Source: a phage. Taken from it: a stretch of DNA of 44,724 nucleotides. The notes below the pieces were generated by a model. That model had not been told where the DNA came from and did no database searches. It saw only the letters and a program-made list of their open reading frames with translations. The position numbers and the translations under genes are program-made. Positions 1-44,724 of this stretch are shown in pieces (position 1 is the first letter of the stretch; the number at the start of each line of letters is the position of its first letter). The stretch lies in the NCBI GenBank assembly GCA_025471175.1, contig GCA_025471175.1_4338.1. One strand, 5' to 3'.

Positions 1-31
1 AAAAAAAAATCCCGGCTGGGTCAGGGCCGGG
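1..31 (-). terminator. candidate rho-independent terminator (minus-strand transcript)
   Basis: GC hairpin cccggc-N9-gccggg at ~11-31 directly preceded on + strand by A9 (U9 after the hairpin on the minus transcript); at window edge, context incomplete. Confidence 0.45.
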
Positions 32-213
32 AGAAACAGAGAGCAGAGGGATGATACAGGAGGTTGGTGAAACCAGTATGAAGCTGCCGTTGTTGGGTGT
101 CAACAGAGATTTCCGGCTCGCGTTACCGCACATCGGCCTGACCTTGTCACAGGTCCGCGCGGGGGATGATACCCGGAATGCCCGCAATGTTGTTTATCTT
201 CTGTTGACGAAAT

Positions 214-240
214 AAAACCCGGATTCGCGGTCCGGGTTTC
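214..240 (-). terminator. candidate rho-independent terminator downstream of lysozyme gene
   Basis: 7-bp stem acccgga/tccgggt with 7-nt loop; on minus strand followed by UUUAUUU; ~40 nt past the lysozyme stop. Confidence 0.5.
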
Positions 241-277
241 GGGGTGGGGTTAGCACAAACAGCGCAGGGTGATTATA

Positions 278-766
278 TCAGCCTTTCACCGCACGTCCAA
301 TAGCAACCGCCTCTTGCCACGGTTTACCGTCGAACAGTGCCAGACGCCCGGCAGTACGTCGGCGCAGTCCAAGTAACGGTTTACCATTCTGGTTGATGAA
401 CAGTGCCAGCTTAGCCCGTAGCGTCTGCGCATCACCAGCGCGCAGCGCCTTACCCGTGCCTGTAGTAGCCGCAATCACGCCAGCACCCGCGTTAAACACC
501 AGGTCGCACACCGCATCGAACTGACCCTGCGTCAGCGAGTGATGCGCTGCGGCGTCAACGGCGGCTACTGCCTTAGCCATATCGCGATTCAGTAACAGGA
601 GGCCTTGGCCCGGGGTGATGGTCTTGCCAGGTGTTACGTCCGGCCCATAATGCCCATAGCCTATCGTCAGGTACTTCTCGTTCGGCGTAGCGCGATACGC
701 AGTTCCGCGGAATCCCTCAAACGCAGCGGTGAAATGCAATCCATTATCTGAGATATTTCGAGACAC
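278..766 (-). CDS. endolysin, phage lysozyme (GH24-like)
   Basis: ORF track 278..817 begins at TTG; better start is GTG at 764-766 with GGAGG 8 nt upstream. N-terminus ISDNGLHFTAAFEGFRGTAYRATPNEKYLTIGYGH matches the phage lysozyme signature. Confidence 0.85.
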   Translation of the reverse strand: MSRNISDNGLHFTAAFEGFRGTAYRATPNEKYLTIGYGHYGPDVTPGKTITPGQGLLLLNRDMAKAVAAVDAAAHHSLTQGQFDAVCDLVFNAGAGVIAATTGTGKALRAGDAQTLRAKLALFINQNGKPLLGLRRRTAGRLALFDGKPWQEAVAIGRAVKG

Positions 767-1016
767 GCTTATATCCTCCGTATGACAGCCACGCCTGACG
801 AATCTGGCGTAGCGCAACTAATGTGATTAACGTCTCTGGCAGCGTCGGTGACATGCTGCCCTGTAACAGGTGGATACATCCGGCAGCGCAGACGATAGCA
901 GTCAGGATGTAGAGCACCCGACCAAATAGCCCATCGTCAACGCTGGGATGATACACATTAAACAGCGATGTACCCCCTATTGCCAGCATACCGCCGAACC
1001 AGAATAACTCATTCAT
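744..1016 (-). CDS. small membrane protein, holin/antiholin candidate
   Basis: 90 aa, two hydrophobic segments by eye, ATG start, overlaps lysozyme start; directly upstream of endolysin. Confidence 0.5.
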   Translation of the reverse strand: MNELFWFGGMLAIGGTSLFNVYHPSVDDGLFGRVLYILTAIVCAAGCIHLLQGSMSPTLPETLITLVALRQIRQAWLSYGGYKRVSKYLR

Positions 1017-1317
1017 CCGAGCCTCCTCGACGTGAGATGTATTCTCCGGCGACGATACCGGAGAGGCGGGAATAGATAGGCATCCAGAGAATAGCGATAA
1101 TGAATCCGAGGCCAGCTATCTCGCGCTCCCCGGTAATGCCGAACCATTGAGCTGCGAGAGGTGCGCCAAATACAGCGCAAGTGAAGCCAGTTGCGATAAA
1201 GCAGAAGCCGTCTATGGGACCAGAAATAACGGACTTATGTTGTCGTAGCCCGATTACCCCACCGGCTAGTGCGGCGGCGAGAAGCCACCCCGTCACTGTT
1301 TCAGTAAATTTATCCAA
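1009..1317 (-). CDS. holin-like membrane protein
   Basis: 102 aa with about three hydrophobic segments and charged C-terminus; TTG start preceded by GGAGGA; 8-nt overlap with next gene. Confidence 0.5.
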   Translation of the reverse strand: MDKFTETVTGWLLAAALAGGVIGLRQHKSVISGPIDGFCFIATGFTCAVFGAPLAAQWFGITGEREIAGLGFIIAILWMPIYSRLSGIVAGEYISRRGGSDE

Positions 1318-3302: not shown

Positions 3303-3332
3303 CTCTGTCTCTCCTCTCGTTTGTGTAAATGA

Positions 3333-3361
3333 ATAGTAGCCTATTCTATCCCAGTGTGCAA
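3333..3361 (-). promoter_or_regulatory. sigma70-like promoter with AATAG-N4-CTATT element
   Basis: Read on minus strand: TTGCAC-N17-TACTAT; spacer/-10 carries AATAGtagcCTATT; ~25 nt upstream of gene start 3302. Confidence 0.5.
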
Positions 3362-3436: not shown

Positions 3437-3475
3437 CAAAAATGAGAAAAATGATACGCTGCTGTGTAGCAGCGT
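3437..3475 (-). terminator. rho-independent terminator ending the 4543-3518 operon
   Basis: Hairpin acgctgct-gtgt-agcagcgt (3456-3475) followed on minus strand by U-rich run. Confidence 0.5.
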
Positions 3476-3517
3476 AAGTCACTCAGTAAAATCCCAAACT
3501 ATTGTTACAATATAACA

Positions 3518-4089: not shown

Positions 4090-4347
4090 TTATTCACGGC
4101 AACCTCCCTCAGAGTCGTCGGCACGAGCATCATGATTCGATGCCGTTCTGAATGTTACCGCTGGTGTGCCCAGGACATTCACGGTAAAGGCTTCACCATG
4201 TGATTGCTCTAAATCCCACTCATCACCTTCCTCGTCTAAAACGTAGAGACGACCGTCGTAGTGTACTTTCAACGAATACTCGTTGCCTTTTATAAACCAA
4301 CCGCCCATTTCTGCTTTAGACTCAATACAAATTAATTCTTCCATCAC
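4090..4347 (-). CDS. hypothetical protein (85 aa)
   Basis: ORF track; AAGGG RBS before ATG. Confidence 0.45.
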   Translation of the reverse strand: MMEELICIESKAEMGGWFIKGNEYSLKVHYDGRLYVLDEEGDEWDLEQSHGEAFTVNVLGTPAVTFRTASNHDARADDSEGGCRE

Positions 4348-4534
4348 TTCGCCCTTTGAATTTAAAATTGTTGCCTATGAGCTTCATTTCATACTCTCGG
4401 TAATACGCCGTGGAACTTAACCCGTGCTCCCTGAGTAAGCTAACGACATAAGAACTTCGGTACACTGTCGATTTCTTTTCAATAATACCTAAGCTACCGT
4501 ACATCGTTTTCACCAACTGACCCTTCCTAAACAT
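4322..4534 (-). CDS. hypothetical protein (about 70 aa)
   Basis: ORF track 4322..4543 (GTG); third in-frame ATG at 4532-4534 sits 8 nt after GAGGAG. Confidence 0.45.
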   Translation of the reverse strand: MFRKGQLVKTMYGSLGIIEKKSTVYRSSYVVSLLREHGLSSTAYYREYEMKLIGNNFKFKGRSDGRINLY

Positions 4535-4569
4535 AACCATCACTCCTCTGTCTCATCCCGATAAGTGAA

Positions 4570-4598
4570 TAGTATCCTATTATGTTGGGGTGTGCAAG
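4570..4598 (-). promoter_or_regulatory. sigma70-like early promoter (leftward)
   Basis: Minus strand TTGCAC-N17-TACTAT; a ~37-nt block here is the exact reverse complement of the block at 27502-27538. Confidence 0.55.
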
Positions 4599-4644: not shown

Positions 4645-4679
4645 GAGCGAAACGAAACGAACGTGGTGCCGAAGGCACC
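4645..4679 (-). terminator. candidate intrinsic terminator/attenuator after leader copy A
   Basis: On minus strand ggugcc-UUCG-ggcacc hairpin (forward 4665-4679) followed by acguucguuucguuucg. Confidence 0.4.
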
Positions 4680-4860
4680 AAGAGTGAGTGAGTGAGCTTG
4701 CGGTTCTGACCCACGGCAAATCAGTAACTTAGATATTTAGGCGGGAATTACAATAGACTTTGGCCCTTCCGAATGCGCCAGCGAGCCTCACTCCACACGT
4801 CGAGACGTGCTCGTTTCGCCTGCCGCGCACCGCGGTCGCTTGTTCATACTTCACAAGCTC
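4645..4860 (-). ncRNA. candidate ~200-nt leader RNA / sRNA, copy A
   Basis: Predicted transcript from promoter 4867-4895 to terminator at ~4645-4679; 5' ~110 nt homologous to copy B, including a 34-nt identical block (4830-4863). Confidence 0.3.
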
Positions 4861-4895
4861 AGGACGAGCTTAGCATATTTCTTAGTAAAAGTCAA
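4751..4895. repeat. copy A of a ~145-bp dispersed repeat (other copy 37062-37204)
   Basis: Left block caatagaNtNtggcccttccgaaNgcgNcagcg 29/33 identical; divergent ~45-nt middle; 34-nt perfect block ccgcggtcgcttgttcatacttcacaagctcagg; similar right flank. Confidence 0.7.
4867..4895 (-). promoter_or_regulatory. promoter P_A (extended -10), leftward
   Basis: Minus strand TTGACT-N17-TAAGCT with TGc before the -10; same architecture as P_B at 37176-37204. Confidence 0.5.
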
Positions 4896-4942
4896 TACCA
4901 GTAGCATCTTTTGTATCTTAGTAACTTTGTGTGGTGTTTTGG

Positions 4943-4971
4943 TTGCTTTTACAAAGTTACCGCCTTATACT
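4943..4971 (+). promoter_or_regulatory. sigma70-like early promoter (rightward)
   Basis: TTGCTT-N17-TATACT, ~30 nt upstream of the ATG at 5001. Confidence 0.45.
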
Positions 4972-5000
4972 TCGGTACATCTTACATAGGAGAACGTGAA

Positions 5001-5171
5001 ATGACTATCAATGAAGTAGCTGAACGTATTGGGGTGACGCGCCAGACAATTAATAACTGGATTAAGAGTGGAAAGTTTCCTGATTGCAGCGTTAAAGTAA
5101 TGGGTCGCCGGATGCCGGGGACATTTGACCGTAATAAAGTTGAAGCGTGGATTAAGGAGAACGTGAAATGA
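5001..5171 (+). CDS. small HTH DNA-binding protein (AlpA/excisionase-like HTH)
   Basis: ORF track 4911..5171 (TTG); ATG at 5001 with AGGAG 8 nt upstream; MTINEVAERIGVTRQTINNWIKSGKFP is a helix-turn-helix. Confidence 0.6.
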   Translation: MTINEVAERIGVTRQTINNWIKSGKFPDCSVKVMGRRMPGTFDRNKVEAWIKENVK

Positions 5172-7843: not shown

Positions 7844-7866
7844 AAAGGGGCGTTAAGCCCCTTCAC
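7844..7866. terminator. hairpin terminator between helicase and repressor genes
   Basis: ggggc-gttaa-gcccc stem-loop; U-run on minus-strand side; repressor stop codon lies in the loop. Confidence 0.4.
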
Positions 7867-8068
7867 CAAACGCCAGCCACTTGGCGTCTACTTCAAGCAC
7901 TTCGGCTAGTTTAAACAGCGTCGCCGGTCGGACGTCCTGAGTTACTCCTAGTGCAAGCTGGTTAATCGCGCCCTGGGAAACGCCGGTCAGGACAGCCAGA
8001 CGGCGCTGGGAGATGCCGAGTTCTTTACGACGTTGTTCTACACGGGTGCCTAGTTCAGATGGTTGCAT
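7853..8068 (-). CDS. XRE-family (Cro/CI-type) HTH transcriptional regulator
   Basis: 71 aa; RKELGISQRRLAVLTGVSQGAINQLALG is a classic HTH; AAGGAG RBS; lone minus-strand gene in the plus-strand module. Confidence 0.7.
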   Translation of the reverse strand: MQPSELGTRVEQRRKELGISQRRLAVLTGVSQGAINQLALGVTQDVRPATLFKLAEVLEVDAKWLAFGEGA

Positions 8069-8095
8069 GTCAGTTACTCCTTAGTCAGTTGATAT

Positions 8096-8128
8096 GTGAA
8101 TAGTACCATATTAATTATTTTAGAAAAG
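8096..8128 (-). promoter_or_regulatory. candidate promoter of regulator gene with AATAG element
   Basis: Minus strand -10 TACTAT, weak -35; contains GTGAATAGTACC; back-to-back with promoter 8133-8161. Confidence 0.4.
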
Positions 8129-8132
8129 CCCA

Positions 8133-8161
8133 TTGACATGTGAATAGTTCGCTATTATAGT
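8133..8161 (+). promoter_or_regulatory. sigma70-like promoter with AATAG-N4-CTATT operator-like repeat
   Basis: TTGACA-N17-TATAGT; spacer tgtgAATAGttcgCTATta. Confidence 0.55.
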
Positions 8162-8189
8162 TAGCCCATACCAAACGAGAGGGGCAGAT

Positions 8190-8417
8190 ATGAACACAAT
8201 CACTGGGGCCATAGCTAAAGGTTTTCGAGCAATTTTCGGCGCTCCGCAAGAAGTGTGCACAAAACATAAATTTGTACTTTCTTGCGTAGTAGGGGATGAG
8301 TTTGATGGGTTCGATAAACTTGTTGTCTGTGACCATTGCGGGCAAGAAGCTATTCAACACTCAAACGGTAAATTTGAACTAATAGACGATAGCCTTACTG
8401 AAGGCGACGGTGAGTAA
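8190..8417 (+). CDS. hypothetical protein, Cys-rich (possible zinc ribbon)
   Basis: 75 aa; GAGAGGGG RBS; CxxHC near C-terminus. Confidence 0.5.
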   Translation: MNTITGAIAKGFRAIFGAPQEVCTKHKFVLSCVVGDEFDGFDKLVVCDHCGQEAIQHSNGKFELIDDSLTEGDGE

Positions 8418-10844: not shown

Positions 10845-10873
10845 TTGACACCTGAATAGTTGGCTATTATAGT
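10845..10873 (+). promoter_or_regulatory. sigma70-like promoter with AATAG-N4-CTATT repeat
   Basis: TTGACA-N17-TATAGT; spacer cctgAATAGttggCTATta. Confidence 0.55.
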
Positions 10874-10929
10874 TCTAATCACTGGCCGGGCAGCTTCCCG
10901 GAGTAAACTAAAAACTGAGGAATCGAGAT

Positions 10930-14370: not shown

Positions 14371-14651
14371 CTAAAGAGGGCCGCGTACAGAAATACGCAA
14401 AAGAGCGATTCGAGGCCATCGGCGGCCTCGTTCGTAAACTTTCCTACGAGGGGCGCTCGGGTGCCCCCGACCTGCTGGTAATTCTCCCTGGCGGCATCGT
14501 CTGGTTCGTCGAGGTGAAGAAAGACGAAAACGCGAAGCCGGGCCCCCACCAGCTACGAGAGCACGAGCGGATGCGTAAACGTGGTGCAAATGTTTTTGTC
14601 GTTGGGTCGTTTAAACAGGTTGACGACCTAATAGCGAACTATTATAGTTAG
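14367..14651 (+). CDS. VRR-NUC domain nuclease
   Basis: 94 aa; GAPDLLVILPGGIVWFVEVK fits the VRR-NUC PD-(D/E)XK pattern. Confidence 0.6.
   Translation: MTKEGRVQKYAKERFEAIGGLVRKLSYEGRSGAPDLLVILPGGIVWFVEVKKDENAKPGPHQLREHERMRKRGANVFVVGSFKQVDDLIANYYS
14620..14648 (+). promoter_or_regulatory. sigma70-like promoter with AATAG-N4-CTATT repeat
   Basis: TTGACG-N17-TATAGT; spacer acctAATAGcgaaCTATta; overlaps 3' end of VRR-NUC gene. Confidence 0.5.
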
Positions 14652-17582: not shown

Positions 17583-17613
17583 AAAAGGCCCCGTTTGGGG
17601 CCTTAGTTTTATT
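17583..17613. terminator. bidirectional rho-independent terminator
   Basis: aggcccc-gttt-ggggcct hairpin flanked by A-run and T-run; between convergent genes. Confidence 0.6.
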
Positions 17614-27504: not shown

Positions 27505-27533
27505 TTGCACACCCCAACATAATAGGATACTAT
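27505..27533 (+). promoter_or_regulatory. sigma70-like promoter of the moron
   Basis: TTGCAC-N17-TACTAT; ~37 nt identical (reverse complement) to early-left promoter region 4563-4599. Confidence 0.55.
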
Positions 27534-27574
27534 TCACTTACACCAACAATGTTAACTCAAACAGGAGCTACCCC

Positions 27575-29355: not shown

Positions 29356-29385
29356 AAAAGGCCCCGAAAGGGGCCTTAGTTTTAT
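29356..29385. terminator. bidirectional rho-independent terminator
   Basis: aaggcccc-gaaa-ggggcctt hairpin with A-run and T-run flanks; same stem as terminators at 17583 and 37854. Confidence 0.6.
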
Positions 29386-34569: not shown

Positions 34570-34601
34570 TAGTAAATGAAAAGAGGGACCGAAGTCCCTC
34601 T
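34570..34601 (-). terminator. rho-independent terminator after major capsid gene
   Basis: agagggac-cgaa-gtccctct hairpin followed on minus strand by UUUCAUUUACU. Confidence 0.55.
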
Positions 34602-34619
34602 CGATTATATCTTATAACC

Positions 34620-35669
34620 TTAAGCACCGTCACCAGTTACCAGGAAGGCAATCGGTACATGCTTACGGTCAACCACACGGTTCCAGTTGGAGGCGTTCGC
34701 CAGGTCCTGCCAGGAAGCAGAGCGTGCTACAGTCTCGGTGCCGTTACCAGTGATTACCGCGCTGGTGAAGCTGTAGCCAAACGGATGCAGCAACCAGGTC
34801 TTACGGGTCCACAGGGTTTCGACACCACCACCGTTACCGCGAGACGCTTCGCGCTCATATTCCAGCGGGTTGGACGGAGAGCCTTCGCCGTAACCGATAG
34901 CGCCGTTGCCGAAGATAATGGAGATGAACTTACGTCTCGGGCCGGTGCCGACTACGGTCATGCTGTCGTCAACAATCACGCGGTAGCCCTGGTAAGTAGC
35001 AAACATGGTGTTGTTATCGGCGTCGCGGATGAAGTCGATAAGCTGCTGTTTACGTGCCTGCGCATATACGAAGCTGTGCATCGCGATAGCGCCCAACACT
35101 TCACCGCCGTTGCCCATCAGCGCATCACCCATAGTCTGGGTAGCGTCGATGAACGCGCCCGAGTCGAAGCCCGGGGTGGCGGACACGTCCACTACCATGT
35201 CGTTCTGCTCGTGGTATGCGTCGGTAGCGGCTACGTTGTCGTTGTACAGACCGAGCGCGGTAGCAATCAGACGGCGTTGTGCCTGACGCTGCCAGAAGTT
35301 ATCCAGACGGGACGCTACGGATTGCAGCGGGTTCTGGCTGGTCAGTTCAACAGTCAAATCCGCCTGGCCGAAACCTTCGTTCAGATAAGCCACGCGAACA
35401 TCCATCTCACCGGTTTGCACGTTACGTGGGGTGGCGACATCCTGATACACATCGTTCGAGTAGTTCGGTTCGATAGAGGTATCAATCGCTTTCCAGTACG
35501 GCAGAACAGCTTTGTTGGACGGGCCGTTTGCGATAGCGGCGGCGTACGGAGTCGAGGTAAGGATACCGGACTGGAAGAACGCGGTTTTCTCTACCGGGTC
35601 CTCTGTCATGTAGGACAGGATTACCGATTCTTTACCAGTTACGATATCGCCGATAGTAGTAATTGCCAT
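34620..35669 (-). CDS. major capsid protein
   Basis: 349 aa immediately after scaffold gene with overlapping stop/start; followed by strong terminator. Confidence 0.8.
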   Translation of the reverse strand: MAITTIGDIVTGKESVILSYMTEDPVEKTAFFQSGILTSTPYAAAIANGPSNKAVLPYWKAIDTSIEPNYSNDVYQDVATPRNVQTGEMDVRVAYLNEGFGQADLTVELTSQNPLQSVASRLDNFWQRQAQRRLIATALGLYNDNVAATDAYHEQNDMVVDVSATPGFDSGAFIDATQTMGDALMGNGGEVLGAIAMHSFVYAQARKQQLIDFIRDADNNTMFATYQGYRVIVDDSMTVVGTGPRRKFISIIFGNGAIGYGEGSPSNPLEYEREASRGNGGGVETLWTRKTWLLHPFGYSFTSAVITGNGTETVARSASWQDLANASNWNRVVDRKHVPIAFLVTGDGA

Positions 35670-36455: not shown

Positions 36456-36719
36456 CTATTCCAGAATATTCCTCACGTAATCCTGCAACATGAACACTTT
36501 CAGTCTCAGTTGCCGTACACATTCGGCGTTCTGAACGTCGATAGCTAAATCCTCGTCAGCGTCGCTACTTGGCGGTGCCAGTTTGCACGGCGGCTGCATC
36601 ATCGTCGTATCCGGGGATGGAATTGGCGTTGGCAACGGCGTGGGACTTGAGCAGGACGCGAGCATCGTCGAAAGTGCACACGCTGCGGCCAGGCGTTTTA
36701 ATGTACTTAACGACTTCAC
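36456..36719 (-). CDS. o-spanin (Rz1-like lipoprotein), embedded
   Basis: 87 aa; LSTMLASC lipobox, Pro-rich; out of frame within the i-spanin gene. Confidence 0.55.
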   Translation of the reverse strand: MKSLSTLKRLAAACALSTMLASCSSPTPLPTPIPSPDTTMMQPPCKLAPPSSDADEDLAIDVQNAECVRQLRLKVFMLQDYVRNILE

Positions 36720-36951
36720 GGGTAATCACCTCTGATTTCGTCTTGCCTTCGTTGTCAGCGGCGGCGGCCTTAGATTCGTCCTGCTGCTGCCGTTGTGTTT
36801 TCTTCACTAACTCAGCCTGCGCTTTCTGCTGTTGCTGCGAAACGAGATTCGCCCGGCCTTCGTTCCAGCCGCTGCGATACTGGTAGATTCCGTAGCCGTA
36901 TGTCAGGAGGATGAAACATGCTCCAGCTACGACAGTTGCGTTAAGATTCAT
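36565..36951 (-). CDS. i-spanin (Rz-like)
   Basis: 128 aa; N-terminal TM segment then Gln/Lys-rich coiled coil; contains embedded lipoprotein ORF. Confidence 0.6.
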   Translation of the reverse strand: MNLNATVVAGACFILLTYGYGIYQYRSGWNEGRANLVSQQQQKAQAELVKKTQRQQQDESKAAAADNEGKTKSEVITREVVKYIKTPGRSVCTFDDARVLLKSHAVANANSIPGYDDDAAAVQTGTAK

Positions 36952-36960
36952 GTTTCTCCT

Positions 36961-36997
36961 TTCTCGATAAGTAAAGCCCCGCCTTAAAGCGGGGCGC
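36961..36997 (-). terminator. candidate intrinsic terminator/attenuator between P_B leader and late genes
   Basis: Stem gccccgc/gcggggc (forward 36976-36995) followed on minus strand by UUUACUUAU; ~15 nt upstream of spanin RBS. Confidence 0.4.
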
Positions 36998-37169
36998 TAG
37001 TCCTTATCATTTAAACATAGAAACGGCGTAATCTCAGTAAACCAGTTACTTTTTACACAAGCAATAGAGTATGGCCCTTCCGAACGCGTCAGCGTAACTA
37101 CACTCAGGACTTACGTCCCGCTCCGTTACCTGCCCGCGCCGCGGTCGCTTGTTCATACTTCACAAGCTC
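36961..37169 (-). ncRNA. candidate ~200-nt leader RNA / sRNA, copy B
   Basis: Predicted transcript from P_B (37176-37204) to hairpin 36976-36995; homologous to copy A; no other promoter seen before the late operon. Confidence 0.3.
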
Positions 37170-37204
37170 AGGTGGAGCTTATCATATTTTCAGTGAAAAG
37201 TCAA
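37062..37204. repeat. copy B of the ~145-bp dispersed repeat
   Basis: See copy A; 34-nt identical block at 37139-37172. Confidence 0.7.
37176..37204 (-). promoter_or_regulatory. promoter P_B (extended -10), candidate late promoter
   Basis: Minus strand TTGACT-N17-TAAGCT with TGa before -10; same as P_A. Confidence 0.5.
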
Positions 37205-37218
37205 CTATTCGAATAGTT
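37203..37218. promoter_or_regulatory. perfect 16-bp palindrome, candidate regulator binding site
   Basis: AACTATTCGAATAGTT is its own reverse complement; abuts the -35 of P_B, centre ~41 bp upstream of predicted TSS; shares GAATAGT with the early promoter elements. Confidence 0.5.
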
Positions 37219-37269
37219 TATTCCAACGTTTACAATTGAGTGGAATAACTGGAATACGTAAATAAATAG

Positions 37270-37299
37270 TTTACAGACACCAACATAATAGGGTACTAT
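37270..37299 (+). promoter_or_regulatory. sigma70-like promoter with AATAG element
   Basis: TTTACA-N18-TACTAT; other strand reads AATAGtaccCTATT; AGGAGA RBS then ATG 37327. Confidence 0.5.
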
Positions 37300-37326
37300 T
37301 CAGTTAAATTAAACAGGAGATGATAA

Positions 37327-37848
37327 ATGGTTACTACAGTAATTACTTTCCCTGCGTATGTAGGGGCGAAAATATGCAGGGCTAAAAATGATGTTCGCTA
37401 CTATTTGAACGCTTTTTACATAGACCCTGAAGGATTGATAGTGTCTACGGACGGTCATAGATTGTTCTGCGACAATGTGAAGACCAACGTTGAGAAAGGG
37501 ACTCTCATAGACATCAAAGGGAGAGAGCCTTCTAAATTTAACTACGCAGAGGTAAACCACGACAACGGCAGTGTATCTTTCTATGACGATAATCGTGCGC
37601 TTATATGTACACTTCCGGTAGATGTTGTAGAAGGAAACTTTCCTGACTGGAGACGCGTGGCGCACATCACACCGGGTGTTGTCGACAGTATAGGGTTCAC
37701 TCTGCGCTATTTGGCAGACGCGTACAAGATTTCTAAGGCATACAAAAATGAAATTGCTCGTTTCGATTTCCAGGACCAAACCAGAGGATGCAAAATACAA
37801 TTTTCAAACACGGCCTTTATGGTGTTAATGCCTGCGCGATTTAAATAA
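37327..37848 (+). CDS. truncated DNA polymerase III beta sliding clamp (DnaN)-like protein
   Basis: 173 aa; DVRYYLNAF...STDGHRLFC, GNFPDWRRV, IGFTLRYLADA and C-terminal FMVLMPARFK parallel E. coli DnaN VRYYLNGM...TDGHRLAV, GRFPDYRRV, IGFNVSYVLDVL and YVVMPMRL (recalled from memory). Confidence 0.55.
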   Translation: MVTTVITFPAYVGAKICRAKNDVRYYLNAFYIDPEGLIVSTDGHRLFCDNVKTNVEKGTLIDIKGREPSKFNYAEVNHDNGSVSFYDDNRALICTLPVDVVEGNFPDWRRVAHITPGVVDSIGFTLRYLADAYKISKAYKNEIARFDFQDQTRGCKIQFSNTAFMVLMPARFK

Positions 37849-37853
37849 AACTA

Positions 37854-37877
37854 AGGCCCCATTACAGGGCCTTTTAT
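37854..37877. terminator. bidirectional rho-independent terminator
   Basis: aggccc-cattaca-gggcct then TTTTAT; between convergent genes. Confidence 0.55.
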
Positions 37878-44566: not shown

Positions 44567-44724
44567 TTTCCAAACACTCCTTTAGTTTTCAGATTATTGC
44601 GGTAGAACTGCATCACATGTTCGTTATGGAAGTTACTCATCTTCTCTACTCCGTTCTCGTTGTCGATGGAGTAAATATAATTGGTGTCAGAGTAATAGTC
44701 AACTAGTCATTGCAGAAAATAGAT

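Follow-up and report, generated by a model that had tools for sequence, protein, structure and literature searches.

Two minus-strand gene runs in a single phage genome, 32 kb apart, begin with the same type of predicted promoter followed by homologous untranslated segments, which raises the question of what this shared leader is and what it does to the transcripts that carry it. The window (the whole stretch of DNA analysed, 44,724 nucleotides, contig GCA_025471175.1_4338.1) is the complete 44.7-kb genome of a Kagunavirus (Guernseyvirinae). The queried region is 95–97% identical to Escherichia phages Schulenburg, fPoEco01, and fFiEco02, with Schulenburg at about 97%; the annotated plus strand of Schulenburg corresponds to the minus strand of the window. 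The phage is virulent, and its host is E. coli.

Gene context of the twin units

The two copies are referred to here as copy A and copy B, and the gene runs that they head as units A and B. Their surroundings are defined by the following genes:

36565–36951, minus strand: i-spanin gene, the first of unit B (ORF list and Schulenburg annotation)
34620–35669, minus strand: major capsid protein gene of unit B (ORF list and Schulenburg annotation)
37327–37848, plus strand: gene upstream of copy B, RusA-like or clamp-like by PHROGs
4322–4543, minus strand: first gene of unit A, encoding a small protein (ORF list, PHROGs)
744–1317, minus strand: two holins at the end of unit A (ORF list, PHROGs)
278–817, minus strand: endolysin at the end of unit A (ORF list, PHROGs)

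Copy B is placed in the gap between the plus-strand gene at 37327–37848 and the i-spanin gene, from which unit B proceeds through o-spanin, scaffold, major capsid, connector, and tail genes (ORF list, Schulenburg annotation). Copy A lies in a divergent region, with plus-strand HTH and helicase-primase genes on one side and, on the other, a minus-strand run of small genes that closes with the two holins and the endolysin. Both units contain lysis genes. The only regulators found in the Schulenburg annotation and in PHROGs scans are a Cro-like repressor (7853–8068) and an excisionase-like HTH protein (4911–5171); neither the curated Schulenburg annotation nor PHROGs scans of 20 small ORFs returned a Q-like or N-like protein.

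A dispersed repeat with its own predicted promoters

Promoter and leader together occupy 37054–37204 (copy B) and 4743–4895 (copy A), both on the minus strand, and a repeat search identified them as the longest dispersed direct repeat in the window, with a spacing of 32,309 nt. The homology reported in the preliminary description, including a 34-nt identical block, was recovered as two repeat families, D2 (4826–4895 vs 37135–37204, 86% identity) and D3 (4751–4783 vs 37062–37094, 88% identity), and pairwise alignment gave the identical block as CCTGAGCTTGTGAAGTATGAACAAGCGACCGCGG. A third match to the end of the leader, at 8380–8412 (family D3), is attributed to chance because it falls inside the plus-strand gene 8190–8417.

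Each copy opens with a predicted promoter:

37176–37204, minus strand: promoter P_B, with -35 TTGACT at 37199–37204, a 17-nt spacer, and extended -10 TGATAAGCT at 37176–37184
4867–4895, minus strand: promoter P_A, TTGACT-N17-TGCTAAGCT

The pattern TTGACT-N14-TGnTAnnnT has exactly two matches in the window, 4867–4895 and 37176–37204, both on the minus strand, and the promoter with its 17-nt spacer and TG extension is kept in 56 of the 59 distinct copies from related phages, so that the same extended -10 promoter does precede both leaders, as had been proposed. In Jerseyvirus, the promoter takes the form TAGACT/TTGACT...TGnTACGCT. A generic promoter scan missed both sites because TAAGCT matches TATAAT at just three of six positions, but the near-consensus -35 and the TG make P_A and P_B credible host sigma-70 extended -10 promoters. 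The -10 hexamer is repeated at approximately -1 to +5 (TAAGCT..TGAGCT in Kagunavirus, TACGCT-ACC-TACGCT in Jerseyvirus); the Kagunavirus repeat, TGAGCT, is without the key conserved A at its second position.

The leader is a structured RNA

The transcribed part of the element is very probably a real, conserved, structured leader RNA. Its length ranges from 105 to 118 nt (about 110), and its predicted parts are as follows:

37054–37169, minus strand: leader RNA of copy B, with predicted +1 at G 37169 (covariance model R1, 136.3 bits, E = 9e-36)
37147–37167, minus strand: hairpin P1 of copy B (MFE fold, covariation)
37080–37144, minus strand: irregular hairpin P2a/P2b/P3/P4 of copy B (MFE fold, covariation)
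37062–37082, minus strand: tail of copy B, CGGAAGGGCCAUACUCUAUUG (MFE fold, covariation)
4743–4860, minus strand: leader RNA of copy A (model R1, 97.3 bits, E = 7.5e-25)

In this fold, a 6-bp 5′ hairpin (P1), which begins about 2 nt from the predicted +1 in all variants, is followed by an irregular hairpin of about 23 bp and by a near-invariant, apparently unpaired tail, UUCGGAAGGGCC-N4-UCUAUUG. Numbered from the predicted +1 at 37169, the elements of the model are P1 (GCUUGU/ACAAGC), a GA linker, P2a (CCG/CGG), P2b (GGYGCG/CGCRUU), P3 (CAG-GNAAC/GUUNC-G-CUG), and P4, a variable apical hairpin closed by a tetraloop. The long hairpin holds conserved internal loops, with GGAG opposite GAGUGUAG; GGA motifs are present in the loops of the leader. 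Copy A shares P1 and P2 with copy B, whereas its inner stems and apical hairpin (GCACGU-CUCG-ACGUGU) differ, and its tail, GGAAGGGCCAAAGUCUAUUG, lies at 4751–4770.

The structure was derived from, and evaluated on, 36 distinct 125-nt cores from an IMG/VR pattern scan and a phage database. In a structure-blind MAFFT alignment, 93% of the cells pair, compared with 32–39% when the partners are slid. RNAalifold on this plain alignment missed the apical hairpin because of misalignment, which was resolved by a hand-derived structure and realignment to the covariance model built from it, R1; the window and the Schulenburg genome each have exactly two matches to this model. In a combined alignment of 43 distinct variants including Jerseyvirus, 95.5% of the cells pair (28–42% in slid controls), double compensatory changes occur at 14 of the 28 pairs, and the covariation score is 0.398 against 0.02–0.04 for the slid controls; no shuffle reached the observed values. 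This alignment is fitted to the model, but the MAFFT alignment and single-sequence folds of six sequence types, each folding independently, agree on the architecture.

Base pairs are thus kept by compensatory substitution in related phages, and on one strand: the frequent G-U pairs, which would be C-A on the other strand, imply that the structure exists on the minus-strand transcript only. The most distant examples are those of Jerseyvirus, where P1 is (A)CGCU/AGCG(U) and P3 is UCGCG/CGCGA, so that the stem sequences are wholly different while the architecture is the same; the tail reads CGGAAGGGCC-GAGC-UAUAUUG. Variants of copy A in other Kagunaviruses already display obvious compensatory changes.

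These comparisons refine the stems that had been read from the window. The 6-bp P1 stem-loop GCUUGU/ACAAGC stands, with CGCU/AGCG in its place in Jerseyvirus. For the central region, where each copy had been credited with its own compensatory stem, the stem of copy B (gtaac/gttac, that is, GUAAC/GUUAC) does covary, with its second pair being UA in 18 variants, AU in 14, and GC in 11, but for copy A another pairing is better supported than cgagc/gctcg, whose fifth pair does not form in the natural variants GAGCCUCG and GAGUCUCG: alifold favours GGC-AGGC/GNCU-C-GCU. An alternative register, or a small GGAA-loop hairpin, is possible for the 3′ strand of P2 in variants with CGU...UCCGG. Six base pairs could link the P1 loop (AGUAUG) to the tail (CAUACU) in copy B of the window, but this pseudoknot was rejected, as other B and A variants break it with no compensatory change. 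Finally, the R1 E-values of the two copies and the count of the tail pattern in the window (2 observed vs 0.00–0.23 expected) exclude a chance origin of the twin units.

Distribution of the leader among Guernseyvirinae

Of 183 records of phages infecting E. coli, Salmonella, Shigella, and Raoultella, 164 have the 171-nt core of copy B at 95% identity or more. Its flanks are less conserved: the 701-nt region around it is 60–90% identical in most records. At capsid-anchored loci, R1 finds one copy about 1.4 kb upstream of the major capsid gene in every Kagunavirus-like contig, and Jerseyvirus contigs, including those of phages Jersey and SETP3, have matches of 37–41 bits (E about 1e-8) at the same position. 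In Kagunavirus and Jerseyvirus, essentially every genome has copy B in front of the spanin-scaffold-capsid unit.

Copy A, on the other hand, is recognisable in only about 43 records and is more variable, with identity down to 77%. In other Kagunaviruses and Jerseyviruses, site A is occupied by unrelated promoter-leader modules, which have TTGACA-N17-TAAGTT or TAAGGT promoters and are not matched by R1. Some of these unrelated leaders carry a tail-like GGGC-N4-YUAUUC motif within a loop. Copy A is a diverged, swappable duplicate that heads the left unit ending in holins and endolysin.

At the borders of the distribution, the Guernseyvirinae-like L089 and L106 keep GCGACCGCG-CGGAAGGGCC and are devoid of the long hairpin, L110 and L111 keep only ..GGGGAUAGUCUAUUC, and no part of the element was found in L087, L097, and L099. 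Apart from chance matches within coding DNA, which R1 does not recognise, every contig returned by two IMG/VR pattern scans was Kagunavirus-like or Jerseyvirus-like, and a host or prophage origin was rejected, as the element has no match in 5,426 complete E. coli genomes. By these searches, the leader is a new, previously undescribed RNA family confined to Kagunavirus and Jerseyvirus. The original observation is hence confirmed, and extended from one genome to a subfamily-wide RNA family supported by covariation.

Relationship to known RNA families and coding potential

A search of the whole window against Rfam 15 gave no matches at the gathering threshold, and the best sub-threshold matches reach at most 16 bits, with E-values of about 1 or more. 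As a control, the HK022 put RNA also returns nothing, since Rfam is without a put model, and a direct comparison is therefore the relevant test for put. The HK022 put regions were located between nun and cI and between cro and cII; R1 has no match in them at E-values up to 10, and the put core (GUCGGG..CGGCG..GGAUGA..CAAUG, from a putL/putR alignment) has no match in the window at up to three mismatches. Membership of the put family is rejected on these grounds and on length (105–118 nt vs ~70 nt), in agreement with the earlier statement that by sequence the element is neither lambda qut/6S nor put.

The paired arrangement also recalls the nut sites (boxA plus boxB) and the rrn leaders, where cis-acting RNA signals made of a hairpin and a conserved linear motif head two phage operons. 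However, boxA (UGCUCUUUAACAA or CGCUCUUA) has 16 matches in the window at up to three mismatches, compared with 12.7 expected, and none of them lies in either leader; unlike boxB, the leader has variable apical loops, and no N-like protein accompanies it. With counts at chance level, boxA-dependent antitermination of the nut/rrn type was rejected. Another resemblance is with the eps-associated RNA (EAR) of Bacillus, a cis-acting structured RNA of about 120 nt proposed to make the polymerase termination-resistant, although EAR is bacterial, is located inside an operon, and has an unrelated fold.

The leader region is also annotated as a 36-codon ORF for a "hypothetical protein" in several GenBank records (e.g., Schulenberg_008), and in the commonest variant of copy B an ATG in the P1 loop indeed opens such a frame. 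It is nevertheless most improbable that a small protein is encoded here: 18 of the 59 distinct copies have no ATG at this place, the remaining ones give ORFs of 9–48 codons, shifted in frame and unrelated in sequence, and the substitutions track base-pairing rather than codons.

Downstream hairpins, predicted terminators, and candidate internal promoters

Whether the leader bears on termination depends on the hairpins that follow it and on the organisation of the units downstream, for which the following features were identified:

36966–36995 (core 36976–36995), minus strand: hairpin B, GCCCCGC-UUUAAG-GCGGGGC, then UUUACUUAUC (terminator scan)
4664–4680, minus strand: hairpin A, UGGUGCC-UUC-GGCACCA, then CGUUCGUUUCGUUUCG, a weak, interrupted U tract
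4558–4587, minus strand: promoter-like motif TTGCAC-N17-TACTAT, which includes the palindrome AATAG-N4-CTATT, located past leader A and before the first gene
34581–34602, minus strand: in-line intrinsic terminator past the major capsid gene, GAGAGGGAC-UUCG-GUCCCUCUU followed by UUCAUUUACU
29358–29377, both strands: bidirectional terminator, AAGGCCCC-UUUC-GGGGCCUU followed by UUUCUC (repeat family D4)
3455–3476, minus strand: in-line terminator inside unit A, a 9-bp stem followed by UCAUUUUUCU

Hairpins A and B lie 175–197 nt from the predicted transcription start, are both followed by U-rich sequence, and pass a simple terminator scan. The hairpin and U-rich tract noted about 200 nt downstream of each promoter are thus present, but their role as terminators is doubtful. 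Hairpin B, directly upstream of the spanin ribosome-binding site (RBS), is terminator-like in Kagunavirus; its U-rich tail CUUAUC, however, pairs with the upstream GAUAAG to form a lower stem (GAUAAG/CUUAUC). The homologous hairpin of Jerseyvirus has a covarying lower stem (UAUACG/CGUAUA), followed by UUAGCGUAUAAAG, without a U tract. With the U-rich tail engaged in a covarying stem and no U tract in Jerseyvirus, the conserved feature seems to be an extended hairpin adjoining the RBS, which is not clearly a terminator. Hairpin A is about 100 nt from the RBS, with the promoter-like motif at 4558–4587 in between, and other A-type variants hold GGGUGGGC-UAAC-GCCCACCC in its place, with no U tract. 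Motifs of the 4558–4587 type are present in six copies in the window (0.07 expected; repeat families D1 and D5), and have been predicted as "phage promoters" (PMC9825357).

A promoter scan of the minus strand between promoter B and the spanin start codon found no other promoter-like site, including the interval between hairpin B and the spanin gene. The suggestion that the spanin-capsid-tail operon has no other promoter therefore holds up to the spanin start, but candidate internal promoters are found further on. A TATAAT at 34604–34609 would make transcripts begin within the stem of the 34581–34602 terminator. The bidirectional terminator, in line with unit B, precedes an opposite-strand cassette, beyond which a promoter-like site precedes the tail chaperone. 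Within unit A, the terminator at 3455–3476 is followed by a further class-I promoter motif at 3331–3348, and a U9 terminator directly past the endolysin by a new promoter candidate at 44674–44702; the strong in-line terminators include one at 1–30. The promoter-like sites after in-line terminators are thus 34604–34633, 27527–27555, 3331–3348, and 44674–44702. Two further tiny promoter-terminator units occur at 1–300.

Because candidate promoters follow the in-line terminators, the expression of distal genes need not depend on read-through, and the two "leftward operons" are better described, as far as sequence signals go, as several transcription units. The proposal that late expression would need read-through is not sustained by this arrangement, nor by the motif at 4558–4587 in unit A; read-through of the terminators appears plausible, yet it is not demonstrably required. 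Published RNA-seq of Kagunavirus is at gene level only and does not address the leaders (PMC12645636).

Possible modes of action of the leader

Conservation of the leader's shape across a phage subfamily suggests that these leaders probably control how host RNA polymerase or RNases handle the transcripts. The features to be explained are the placement at +1, the two homologous copies, the combination of covarying stems with invariant unpaired nucleotides, the wide conservation, and the absence of a recognisable transcription factor. The put RNAs of phage HK022 are approximately 70 nt long, fold into two stem-loops, and suppress pausing and termination without any additional factor, through the zinc-binding domain of the β′ subunit of RNA polymerase. 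To our knowledge, nut and put are the only precedents for paired homologous RNA signals heading phage operons. Since the leaders have no boxA and no N protein was found, the single most likely mechanism is that of a cis-acting element that modifies the transcribing polymerase, working like put without being a member of its family; its probability is estimated at roughly one in three. The nascent leader would fold co-transcriptionally and, by analogy with put, act in cis on the polymerase that made it. If the folded leader stayed attached to the elongation complex, this complex would resist pausing and termination both at the leader hairpin and further on, at the in-line terminators (34581–34602, and 3455–3476 in unit A), and both lysis-containing units might be transcribed through without any phage Q-type or N-type protein.

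Several observations agree with this put-like mode of action. The covarying structure is strand-specific, copy B is more conserved than its flanks, P_A and P_B are the only promoters of their type in the genome, and in-line terminators precede needed genes in units that both contain lysis genes. That the element hardly varies among phages infecting E. coli, Salmonella, Shigella, and Raoultella is consistent with its target being a conserved host component, for instance RNA polymerase. As in HK022, there are two homologous structured RNAs per genome, near the 5′ ends of phage units and on the sense strand—an arrangement that recalls putL/putR and nutL/nutR, with putL also starting at +1—and the RNAs are made of two stem-loops with conserved unpaired bases, differ between copies by compensatory changes, and come with no apparent phage antiterminator protein. 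The leader, however, shows no similarity to put in sequence, structure, or model, and holds a 23-bp hairpin and an invariant 3′ tail. It is also found in virulent Guernseyvirinae, heading lysis and capsid units, whereas put belongs to lambdoid temperate phages and their early operons. Other points against it are the non-canonical downstream hairpin of Jerseyvirus, the promoter-like site after each in-line terminator, the separate promoter-like motif between leader A and its first gene, and the unrelated leaders that occupy site A in many Kagunaviruses.

The main rival, itself somewhat doubtful, is a leader that stabilises or processes the message. The 5′ hairpin would shield the heavily used scaffold/capsid mRNA from 5′-end-dependent decay (RppH, RNase E), and/or cleavage, by RNase III in the ~23-bp hairpin and by RNase E at the tail (UAUU), would give the mature message a stable 5′ end, comparable to T7 mRNAs or the ompA 5′ UTR. 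P1 lies next to the predicted +1 in all variants, and the long hairpin comprises about two helical turns with internal loops, so that the combination resembles the 5′-terminal and irregular hairpins of these highly expressed leaders. Furthermore, the part of unit B before the first strong terminator codes for those proteins of which the phage needs most, a second extended hairpin adjoins the RBS and covaries between genera, and no antitermination would be needed, consistent with the candidate internal promoters. A simple 5′ stabiliser does not explain, however, why the ~25-nt unpaired tail, which has no counterpart in T7 or ompA, and the internal-loop sequences are near-invariant across genera, nor why site A leaders are freely swapped for unrelated ones; cleavage by RNase III would strip off the supposedly protective hairpin, and the leader is found at predicted transcript 5′ ends only, not between genes as in T7.

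Three further explanations are each considered unlikely. An analogue of lambda PR′-qut-6S-tR′, in which a constitutive promoter would make a ~200-nt RNA stopping at the hairpin until an earlier-made phage protein loads on the polymerase and allows read-through into late genes, matches the sigma-70 promoter, the predicted untranslated RNA of about 195–200 nt, which in Kagunavirus would end at the GC-rich hairpin and its U-rich sequence, and the lysis and capsid genes of the unit; the -10 repeat could be a sigma-dependent pause signal. The failure to find a Q-like or N-like protein in the Schulenburg annotation and in the 20 small ORFs scanned argues against it, and Q works through DNA sites and needs no RNA structure, while here there are two copies whose stems covary and whose sequence is free to change; in addition, the Jerseyvirus hairpin has no U tract, and the Kagunavirus hexamer repeat does not have the key A. 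A sensor or attenuator, whether riboswitch-like or protein-binding, would let a bound metabolite or a host or phage protein set the fate of the downstream hairpin or RBS, and so time late expression. The element has the size, the conserved internal loops, and the invariant single-stranded segment usual in leaders that bind a ligand or a protein, and it lies within a ~200-nt untranslated leader that ends with a hairpin beside the RBS. Nevertheless, manual comparison of A, B, and phiEc4-type copies found no shared way for the element to pair alternatively with the downstream hairpin, the hairpin of copy A is remote from its RBS, with a promoter-like motif between them, and no Rfam riboswitch matches even at E = 10. 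As for a free-standing small RNA, either terminated at about 200 nt or cleaved off past the tail, it could regulate host RNAs in trans, or titrate a host RNA-binding protein or a defence system by acting as a decoy or sponge. A strong predicted promoter followed by a compact structured RNA with GGA loop motifs, the exchangeability of site A, reminiscent of accessory and anti-defence loci, and the other tiny units at 1–300 would suit this role, but the only matches to an antisense target of the tail in the phage genome are the elements themselves, the absence of the element from E. coli genomes implies that it mimics no host RNA by sequence, and the fixation of copy B, the most conserved copy, at the head of the capsid unit argues for a role in cis.

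The interpretation originally attached to the locus, a resemblance to lambda PR′-qut-6S-tR′ or to put, is in consequence partly supported as an analogy, unsupported as family membership, and weakened in the details of the terminators.

Implications for gene expression in Guernseyvirinae

Kagunavirus and Jerseyvirus are among the phages most often isolated for therapy and biocontrol of E. coli and Salmonella. We know of no RNA polymerase, sigma factor, or recognisable antiterminator encoded by Guernseyvirinae. An RNA supported by covariation, located at the predicted +1 of the capsid/lysis transcript and near-invariant over hundreds of isolates, is thus a candidate for the control of late expression. 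In many GenBank records the element is overlain by a "hypothetical protein" that is very probably spurious; an Rfam entry for the element would be warranted.

A put-like action of the leader would carry a broader, still tentative implication: the element may represent a second class of self-sufficient antiterminator and anti-pausing RNA, structurally unrelated to put, which together with the TGnTAAGCT promoters would constitute the late (lysis and capsid) switch of Guernseyvirinae without any phage transcription protein. Should the polymerase itself be its target, put would be the only earlier phage RNA of this kind, and the leader would provide a compact part for terminator-proof transcription units.

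Sequence elements of the leader RNAs and their promoters

The promoters of both structured leader RNAs, leader B at the head of the spanin-scaffold-capsid unit and its homologue leader A at the head of the left unit, carry a repeat of the -10 hexamer shortly 3′, at the transcription start (37164-37184 and 4855-4875, minus strand), as does the Jerseyvirus sequence (L112:2013-2040). This repeat reads TAAGCT-N5-TGAGCT in Kagunavirus, where it is also an inverted repeat (AAGCTC-N5-GAGCTT), versus TACGCT-ACC-TACGCT in Jerseyvirus, both hexamers having changed jointly, and it could act as a sigma-dependent pause signal or as an operator. Adjoining the -35 element of P_B, the leader B promoter, is a perfect 12-bp palindrome, CTATTCGAATAG (37205-37225, minus strand), with GAATACTTTATTC at the equivalent position in Jerseyvirus. 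It is absent from copy A and may represent a late-promoter-specific protein site.

At the other end of the B copies, the 5′ half of P1, the 5′-terminal hairpin, recurs directly 3′ of the near-invariant tail (37050-37066, minus strand; L112:2110-2124), the Kagunavirus version being GCUUGUG/UUGCUUGUGU and the Jerseyvirus one GCUUUCAG/UUGCUUUCAGU; only UUGU is left of it in the A copies. This second copy could be a rival partner for the P1 3′ strand, closing the entire domain.

Many GenBank records annotate a 36-codon "hypothetical protein" over leader B (e.g., Schulenberg_008, L001:6328-6438; Bas70-76). Since neither its start, nor its frame, nor its length is conserved, it is very probably a mis-annotated RNA element.

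Other promoters and terminators

A second promoter class, TTGACA/TTGCAC-N17-TATAGT/TACTAT, is repeated upstream of many genes on both strands of the window.

Sites of the second promoter class
3331-3348, minus strand
4558-4587, minus strand
8089-8118
8133-8162, plus strand
10845-10874, plus strand
14620-14649, plus strand
27505-27540, plus strand
37271-37306, plus strand

The palindrome GAATAG-N4-CTATTAT inside their spacer is probably a common operator, for the Cro-like (7853-8068) or the HTH (4911-5171) protein. In the fBC-Eco01 paper this motif is reported as a "phage RNA polymerase promoter"; the phages themselves, however, have no polymerase gene.

Two tiny promoter-to-terminator units, both candidate small RNAs, directly follow the endolysin stop.

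Units within 1-300, minus strand
First: TTGGAC-N16-TGATATAAT, ~60 nt, hairpin AACCCGGA..UCCGGGUU + UUAUUU
Second: TTGACA-N17-CATACT, ~60 nt, CCCGGC..GCCGGG + U9

One bidirectional terminator (AAGGCCCC-loop-GGGGCCTT + AGTTTTAT) occurs in three copies, at the borders of convergent gene blocks.

Bidirectional terminator copies
17585-17604
29358-29377
37853-37873

A promoter-like GTGACG-N18-TATAAT (34604-34633, minus strand) ends 1 nt short of the post-capsid terminator stem. RNAs from this site would start within the stem and thereby escape the terminator, and the site possibly supplies transcription of the connector and tail genes.

Leaders in other Guernseyvirinae-like lineages

Different structured leaders precede the spanin gene in other lineages (L089:1420-1560, L106:1580-1720; L110:1350-1530, L111:1240-1420). 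One type, possibly enclosed by GCGAC/GUCGC, retains GCGACCGCG-CGGAAGGGCC-N4-UCUGUUA without the long hairpin that follows P1; another retains only GGGGAUAGUCUAUUC, 3′ of unrelated hairpins. Judging from these partially retained motifs, GGG..UCUAUU may therefore be the shared functional core.
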